A DNA stretch of 6,025 bases. Source: a virus (lineage: Duplodnaviria; Heunggongvirae; Uroviricota; Caudoviricetes). The position numbers were made by a program, and so were the translations under genes. Under the pieces are notes generated by a model. It did not search any database, was not told where the DNA came from, and saw only the letters and a list, made by a program, of their open reading frames with translations. The stretch spans positions 1 to 6,025 of IMG/VR virus record IMGVR_UViG_2681813226_000023. The stretch is one strand, 5' to 3'. This document shows, piece by piece, positions 3,249 through 3,478 of the stretch (its first letter is position 1; each line of letters begins with the position of its first letter).

Positions 3249-3478
3249 CCCTCTACCCCATCTACCTGAATGAAATAAACGCATATTATTCAACATGATA
3301 AGTGGGTAGAGGGATAGGTAGAAGGCTAATAAAACCCCTCTACCCCCTCTACCATGATTAAGGTCGTTTGTGAGGGGCGGGTAGAGGATGGGTAGAGGGC
3401 CACGAAAAGTCCTCTACCCATCTGAAAGCCGCGCCATTACTGACCTGAAAGATGATTAGGTAGAAGAGGTAGAGGAGG
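3249..3478. repeat. Iteron array, candidate replication origin: six paired 7-bp core repeats CTCTACC/GGTAGAG in alternating orientation with an AT-rich spacer
   Basis: CCCTCTACCCCATCTACC 3249..3266; GGGTAGAGGGATAGGTAGAAGG 3304..3325; CCCCTCTACCCCCTCTACC 3335..3353; GGGTAGAGGATGGGTAGAGGG 3379..3399; CCTCTACCCATCT 3411..3423; AGGTAGAAGAGGTAGAGGAGG 3458..3478. AT-rich stretch 3267..3303. Located directly 3-prime of the initiator gene, as in SaPI/PICI origins. Confidence 0.7.

Follow-up and report, generated by a model that had tools for sequence, protein, structure and literature searches.

A TCTACC iteron array directly downstream of rep is the very probable replication origin of an Escherichia coli PICI

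The window analysed here, a single stretch of 6025 bp, is 98-100% identical to sequence in the chromosomes of E. coli O157:H7, O103:H2, O121 and other strains, with up to six matching places (median one) in each E. coli genome that has a match. In strain 7.1_Anguil it lies inside an island of ~9.5 kb, bounded by cspD/yljB on one side and clpS on the other, which carries genes for a tyrosine integrase and an HTH regulator, YlcI-like, icd-like and DUF4222 genes, the rep module, terS and a capsid-like gene. The cspD-clpS interval is the PICI attachment site of EcCIIHE3034 and EcCI18098 (Fillol-Salom et al. 2018 supplement, PMC6092414). The island has an integrase at a PICI attachment site, an HTH regulator and genes that run rightward and unidirectionally on the plus strand, and the window is part of a PICI integrated at cspD-clpS.

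The genes and features of the window are listed in Table 1. Adjoining rep in all annotated relatives examined is the DUF4222 gene, whose protein may be a replication accessory, and the ATGA overlap at 1487-1490 implies translational coupling of the two genes. We also considered the DUF4222 protein as an analogue of P4 Cnr and rejected this because BLASTP found no similarity to P4 Cnr/ORF106; ORF106 is the gene directly upstream of alpha, and we take it to be cnr. Further upstream, a perfect 11-bp direct repeat, GGGCCACACCT, is present at 249 and 272 (region 248-282), between the divergent YlcI-like and icd-like genes, and could be an operator for an early promoter of the island.

Table 1. Genes and features of the 6025-bp window, in order of position
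Feature	Position	Strand	Remarks
YlcI-like gene	4-180	-	
icd-like gene	380-583	+	several small ORFs are also present
DUF4222 gene	1191-1490	+	stop overlaps the rep start (ATGA)
rep	1487-3235	+	initiator helicase, 582 aa
Rep C-terminal origin-binding domain	2942..3208	+	residues 486-574; predicted reader of the TCTACC sites
Intergenic region 3' of rep			~290 bp
Iteron pair 1	3252..3266	+	TCTACC at 3252 and 3261, 9 bp apart; column conservation 0.9-1.0 in 46 unique relatives
AT-rich spacer	3267..3304	.	38 bp, 74-76% A+T, between convergent sites
Iteron pair 2	3305..3322	-	GGTAGA at 3305 and 3317, 12 bp apart
Iteron pair 3	3339..3353	+	TCTACC at 3339 and 3348
Iteron pair 4	3380..3396	-	GGTAGA at 3380 and 3391
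Single iteron	3413..3418	+	TCTACC at 3413, no conserved partner
Conserved non-iteron block CTGAAAGCCGCGCCATTACTGAC	3422..3445	.	in the 40-bp gap; most columns conserved at ~0.9-1.0
Iteron pair 5	3459..3473	-	GGTAGA at 3459 and 3468
AAAACTTTTT tract	3492..3501	.	just 3' of the last iteron pair
Ribosome-binding site GAGGGGGG	3506-3513		followed by ATG 3523; marks the 3' limit of the origin region
Small gene, phrog_1231	3523-3831	+	ATG at 3523
terS, small terminase gene	4451-4939	+	
Capsid-like gene	5102-6025	+	

All 11 copies of the hexamer TCTACC (GGTAGA on the other strand) in the 6025-bp window fall within 222 bp (3252-3473), and the first begins 17 bp past the stop codon of the 582-aa helicase gene, so that the array lies directly downstream of the initiator gene as a preliminary description of this DNA had stated. 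The hexamer is expected 1.29 times in the window; the maximum among shuffled sequences was 6, and 0 of 200 shuffles reached 11. That description had counted about eleven copies of the 7-mer CTCTACC, a number which holds for the hexamer but not for the 7-mer: CTCTACC/GGTAGAG is present in eight copies only, all in 3251-3474 (expected 0.35; 0 of 200 shuffles reached eight), and the remaining three sites read TTCTACC (two) and ATCTACC (one). A chance origin of the array is excluded by these counts.

The sites had also been described as six pairs whose orientation flips from pair to pair at roughly 50-bp spacing. Orientation does flip from group to group, but we found five pairs and one singleton, the site at 3413: its supposed partner, TCTGAA at 3421, matches at three of six bases and is not TCT... 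in relatives, nearly all of which, whatever their iteron type, have a single site in this group. Successive groups are spaced 53, 34, 41, 33 and 46 bp apart (mean about 41), making the earlier 50 bp a loose approximation of a range of 33-53 bp, and sites inside pairs lie 9-12 bp apart. Taken by orientation, the groups make up three convergent units, whose gaps measure 38, 26 and 40 bp, and a repeat finder reported a higher-order unit of 74-87 bp (families D1 and D2).

The first of these gaps is AT-rich. The segment 3267-3303, originally noted as AT-rich, follows the first pair; it is 75.7% A+T compared with 52% for the whole window, and the least stable stretch inside the array is the 30-mer 3273-3302 (dG -32.6; window mean -40.6, sd 3.5), which ranks seventh by instability among the non-overlapping 30-mers of the window. 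One pair of sites flanks the spacer on its 5' side and nine sites on its 3' side. In the relatives examined, and across iteron types, the first convergent gap is found at the same position with a length of 38-40 bp and 74-89% A+T; judged by composition and placement, 3267..3304 is the probable DNA-unwinding element. The last convergent gap is similarly constant, measuring 39-40 bp in P4 crr and in the examined relatives whatever their site type.

Elements other than iterons are conserved as well. Of 94 loci, 67 contain a single copy of part of the block in the 40-bp gap, GCGYCATTACTG (3431-3442), always at this position. The full block, CTGAAAGCCGCGCCATTACTGAC, is conserved to the degree seen in the iterons, and it is independent of iteron specificity, because GCGYCATTACTG is also carried by L079 and L080, two islands with the iteron TGTTCAC. 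Of 85 related arrays, 69 contain an AAAA(N)TTTT motif like that of the AAAACTTTTT tract, compared with 51 of 1700 shuffles. Beyond it, the region of the ribosome-binding site and the next gene (3506..3831) is conserved at 0.9-1.0, and a homologous CDS start is annotated in L002. Database records differ over the start of the phrog_1231 gene, one RefSeq record using an internal ATG (3585) and another record the upstream ATG (= 3523); the upstream start, which follows the conserved GAGGGGGG, looks better supported.

A terminator scan of 3000-3900 gave no hit between rep and the array; the sole intrinsic-terminator-like hairpin of that region, AGCCGGAGCAATCCGGCT followed by T7, is at 3850-3867, past the phrog_1231 gene. 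Since a terminator between rep and the array is absent, the origin is probably transcribed with the operon, and rep, origin and the phrog_1231 gene probably form one transcript. A sigma-70 promoter scan of the same 3000-3900 region found no promoter-like site, and when the whole window was compared with Rfam at E<=1, the array had no match and the sole hit was a chance snoRNA inside rep. We rejected a 42-aa minus-strand ORF (3358-3486) and other ORFs in the array as genes, given that an ATG-initiated ORF of at least 40 aa is present in only 6 of 46 relatives. When the three convergent units were folded as single strands, the hairpins obtained were just those that inverted sites would give (z-scores -1.5 to -3.2), and there is no evidence for special structure in them. 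Matches to DnaA boxes and IHF sites were inspected by eye: an 8/9 DnaA-like box, AGTGGATAA, is present in CFT073-type origins and absent from the window. With RNA family, promoter, terminator and conserved ORF all absent from the array, no explanation other than an origin fits.

The Rep protein itself matches D5_N (1.2e-15) and DUF5906 (SF3 helicase; 5e-10) in Pfam and, weakly and in its C-terminal part, Pox_D5 (6.4e-4); it has the Walker A motif GDGGSGKST and matches NCBIfam TIGR01613, and its residues 193-430 match PDB 7OLA, deposited as ‘DNA primase’ (E 4.4e-15). Database records annotate Rep as ‘DNA primase family’ or ‘P4 family primase’, yet a Zn-ribbon or Toprim domain is undetectable in it. 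P4 alpha and a 794-aa Morganella homologue have Zn_Ribbon_Prim and Toprim_3 domains in Pfam, unlike Rep, whose N-terminal 145 aa have no Pfam match at E<=1 and no profile match to the Zn-ribbon plus Toprim region of the P4 and Morganella proteins (hhalign probability 0.07%). A MAFFT alignment had hinted at a degenerate Toprim domain in these 145 aa, a candidate that we rejected on the same profile-profile probability and the lack of a Pfam match. They form a separate domain (1487-1921), of which two or more mosaic alleles exist (residues 50-150 about 60-66% identical between them), attached to an almost invariant core.

At the other end of the protein, the C-terminus matches 1KA8, the C-terminal domain of P4 alpha, with E 1e-5 as a single sequence, and a profile of seven TCTACC-type C-termini matches 1KA8 over the whole domain (E 1.2e-11). 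From this homology the C-terminal domain is the likely reader of the Rep sites. Its identity is 52-100% within the group of Reps with TCTACC-type origins and 28-39% between that group and others, and residues 150-470 are 41-65% identical between site-type groups. Co-variation of the Rep C-terminus with site type is consistent with, and not proof of, contact between them, because the site types follow Rep phylogeny and the C-terminus evolves fast generally; all TCTACC-type Reps form one clade, inside which C-terminal identity goes down to 52%.

The closest characterised counterpart is EcCICFT073, whose Pri-Rep is 91% identical to Rep over the full length. Identity is 100% for residues 150-400 and 96-100% for the C-terminal part, and the differences cluster in the mosaic N-terminal segment. 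When the rep-ori segment of EcCICFT073 was placed on a temperature-sensitive plasmid, colonies were obtained at the restrictive temperature; in the same assay, deletion or mutation of rep gave no colonies, and deletion of ori gave significantly fewer, although not zero (Fillol-Salom et al. 2018, PMC6092414). We mapped the published primers on the EcCICFT073 locus (L008) and found that the delta-ori construct terminates at 7000, four bases beyond the stop codon of rep, and the ‘ori’ construct near 7307 (one primer base is mismatched), which makes the deleted ori 7001 to about 7307. This segment aligns with about 3240-3547 of the window, and its 11 TCTACC sites nearly coincide with those of the window in position and orientation. 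By this alignment, the window array is the direct homologue of an experimentally tested origin. The test was made on a homologue whose intergenic region is ~66-70% identical, and the window origin is supported by homology to it.

EcCICFT073 and the window have in common the gene order DUF4222 gene, rep and origin, and both origins contain the AT-rich gap, a GCGCCATTACTG block and the AAAACTTTTT tract. They differ in the intergenic sequence, which is only about 66-70% identical, and in the base before the core, which is mostly C in the window and G or A in EcCICFT073. Groups two and three have 2+2 sites in the window, whereas the EcCICFT073 type has one inverted and three direct sites. The islands themselves are at different attachment sites (cspD-clpS for the window island, ycfD-phoQ for EcCICFT073), and terS is present in the window island and absent from EcCICFT073. 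Both the homology of the initiator to PICI Pri-Rep and an origin immediately 3' of its gene are thus found in the window, which matches the PICI order of rep followed by ori exactly. The earlier reading of the array as an initiator-bound PICI origin is supported by the 91% identical Rep and the tested homologous ori fragment.

For comparison across the family, relatives were gathered from E. coli chromosomes, species-representative genomes and IMG/VR (80 loci); a single-Rep search of genome contigs gave three loci, and an alignment search of viral contigs was far more productive. The 46 distinct TCTACC-type origins are 59-100% identical to the window overall, with a mean conservation of 0.90 for site columns versus 0.63 for other array columns (Mann-Whitney p 7e-12); the array sites are shown to be under selection and selectively conserved. 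A tally of 512 sites gave YY-N-TCTACC-Y, with A, C and G about equally frequent as the preceding base, so the core previously given as CTCTACC needs correcting: what is invariant among relatives is TCTACC(Y).

Just 3' of rep, each locus of the 85 Rep-ori pairs contains one hexamer family in multiple copies, usually 9-12. The iteron comparison among related islands that the preliminary description had proposed distinguishes three types, each following Rep lineage. The TCTACC type accounts for 65 of the 85 loci, EcCICFT073 included, with Reps at least 70% identical to the window protein. Another 15 loci are of the TGTTCA type (Rep 34-55% identical), to which P4 alpha, the Klebsiella element vB_KppS-Ant and Serratia and Morganella islands belong, and five are of a GTATAC-like type (Rep about 53% identical). 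The iteron had been expected to define the replicon specificity of this one element; because TCTACC is common to 65 of 85 Rep-ori pairs, it instead marks a family-wide specificity group. The order-orientation string >><(<)>>(>)<<><< is dominant and recurs in both the TCTACC and TGTTCA types, and the GTATAC-type loci have the same layout by eye: the site hexamer changes with Rep lineage while the layout persists. One set of sister islands with the same layout differs in its sites, L081 having GTGTTCAT and L083, L084, L086, L088 and L090 having GTATACAT or GTATACAC. The Reps of these islands are nearly identical, with about nine differences in the last 100 residues; L083 holds intermediate site copies, and the series is a natural specificity switch.

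The layout has a counterpart in phage P4. In the P4 record, ori type 1 repeats are annotated near 9310-9413, and crr, consisting of two 120-bp repeats, at 4291-4590, directly 3' of alpha. Read in the orientation of alpha, P4 ori begins with two direct sites; a 39-bp AT-rich gap separates them from one inverted site, after which come three direct sites, and the 5' half of the window array (3252-3353) mirrors this order. In a P4 crr unit, an inverted and a direct site precede a 39-bp gap, beyond which lie an inverted pair and then A8CT6 or A8T6, the counterparts of AAAACTTTTT with which the two 120-bp repeats end in P4 (L014); the unit is mirrored by the 3' half of the window array (3380-3501), whose final element is AAAACTTTTT. 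Other likenesses are the short sites (6-8 bp) in helically phased pairs of alternating orientation, the 39-40 bp between convergent sites, and the position of crr directly 3' of alpha, as the array is directly 3' of rep. Alpha is 51% identical to the SF3 helicase core of Rep (window residues 295-470), and the C-terminal origin-binding domains are homologous (1KA8), although that of Rep is only 29% identical to alpha's.

P4 and the window also differ in several respects. The site is TCTACC in the window and the type 1 repeat TGTTCACC in P4; the window array contains no copy of TGTTCA, and its relatives L011, L013 and L079 carry TGTTCAC(C). The two halves are contiguous in the window, 26 bp apart, whereas P4 ori and crr are 4.5 kb apart, so the window has a single array in place of two separated cis elements. 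Rep is without the Zn-ribbon and Toprim primase part of the trifunctional alpha, and the window is without a terminator between rep and the array. A literature search on P4 crr and iterons, and on later work on EcCICFT073 iterons, found nothing beyond PMC6092414.

From its layout, the array looks like a P4 ori-like half and a P4 crr-like half joined 26 bp apart, which is possibly a new point. One module, ori-like (3252-3353), may start with two direct sites, which a 38-40-bp AT-rich gap separates from one or two inverted sites, with two or three direct sites following; the other, crr-like (3380-3501), may have an inverted pair and one direct site before a 39-40-bp gap, and a further inverted pair and AAAACTTTTT after it. 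In the islands L073-L076 and L079-L080 the array halves are found in the opposite order 3' of rep, which suggests two separable modules. These swapped islands have the crr-like half first, then about 60-100 bp, then the half with the AT-rich gap. That the PICI origin is a composite of two separable modules matching the two cis elements of P4, ori and crr, is a tentative proposal which we rate somewhat below an even chance. If it is true, the constant convergent gap of ~40 bp would be the footprint of a head-to-head Rep assembly, and GCGYCATTACTG would be the mark of a second factor or a priming signal for an initiator whose primase has been lost.

Similarities to other replicons are more limited. 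PDB 7OLA is presumably the SaPI5 primase-helicase, so that SaPIs have a Rep helicase of the same superfamily, and they likewise have the origin 3' of rep; the 7OLA similarity is, however, confined to the helicase core (Rep residues 193-430), and SaPI iteron sequences differ from those of the window. Transcription in the Gram-positive islands is divergent, not unidirectional (PMC6092414). Iteron plasmids (RepA, pi, TrfA) resemble the window in having multiple initiator repeats beside an AT-rich unwinding region and the initiator gene. Their iterons are direct repeats of 17-22 bp, and a non-helicase winged-helix Rep recruits DnaA and DnaB, whereas the window sites are 6-7 bp long and alternate in orientation, and the initiator is itself an SF3 helicase.

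We believe that 3252-3473, with flanks to about 3505, is very probably the vegetative replication origin of an E. coli PICI, based on its homology and arrangement. Following induction by a helper phage, the island would excise, and the C-terminal winged-helix domain of Rep, a self-loading SF3-type helicase, would bind the eleven TCTACC(Y) sites. Sites within a group are one helical turn apart (9-12 bp) and successive groups face each other, an arrangement of phased pairs and convergent groups that would position Rep oligomers facing one another. Oligomers on facing sites would melt the 38-bp AT-rich gap (3267-3304) first, Rep would load around the single strands and unwind, and host enzymes would prime and extend. 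The reader domain, the place where melting starts, the oligomeric state of Rep and the priming agent are what we infer in this scheme; the need for the homologous EcCICFT073 segment in efficient Rep-dependent plasmid maintenance has been shown. Rep itself has no recognisable primase domain.

If the array were an accessory element like P4 crr, binding Rep and stimulating replication that initiates elsewhere in the island, its position immediately downstream of an alpha-like gene would be accounted for, and so would the crr-like makeup of its 3' half (an inverted and a direct site, a 39-40-bp gap, an inverted pair and an A/T tract). We consider this improbable: a second TCTACC cluster is absent, since every TCTACC copy inside the island L001 belongs to the array and the CFT073 island has only one stray copy outside it. 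Moreover, the 5' half is laid out like P4 ori itself, and rep together with the homologous segment alone sufficed for plasmid maintenance in the case of EcCICFT073. The repeats might alternatively serve chiefly as transcriptional operators that gate read-through from rep into the packaging genes, given that the array separates rep from the next gene in a stretch where no terminator is predicted, is probably transcribed through, and could place a bound initiator as a roadblock. This is very improbable, considering that no promoter-like site is predicted in 3000-3900, that P4 ori and crr, both annotated as replication elements in the P4 record, share this layout, and that deletion of the homologous segment affects plasmid maintenance; a regulatory side effect of the array is possible, but it cannot be its main role.

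The island also encodes TerS, and terminase sites are often repeated short motifs, so the repeats could be imagined as its pac recognition site. We regard this as hardly credible, since EcCICFT073, an island that lacks TerS and uses cos sites mapped elsewhere, has the same array, and since the hexamer changes with Rep lineage. A better pac candidate is AAGTTAC, repeated around the terS start. It has seven copies at 4408-4680 compared with 0.65 expected in the whole window, two of them just upstream of the terS start and five inside terS, in 12-bp steps and both orientations, and it is a plausible candidate pac site for TerS.

The window array, as a very probable origin, is a further example of a known and experimentally characterised type of PICI origin, real and largely ordinary, and it does not overturn current understanding. 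The family-wide comparison and the two-module reading are of modest new value. What the comparison adds is three site types on one conserved layout, fixed convergent gaps of 38-40 bp, and modules that are fused, split or swapped; it provides a cheap framework for how P4-type SF3 initiators assemble on DNA, and the site types are natural specificity variants for domain swaps. For annotators, the region tells where replication of the island starts and which islands share initiator specificity, the TCTACC group comprising EcCICFT073 and most of the E. coli islands sampled. Because this group is common and up to six places matching the window are present per E. coli genome, co-resident TCTACC-group islands could cross-activate one another or compete for Rep.
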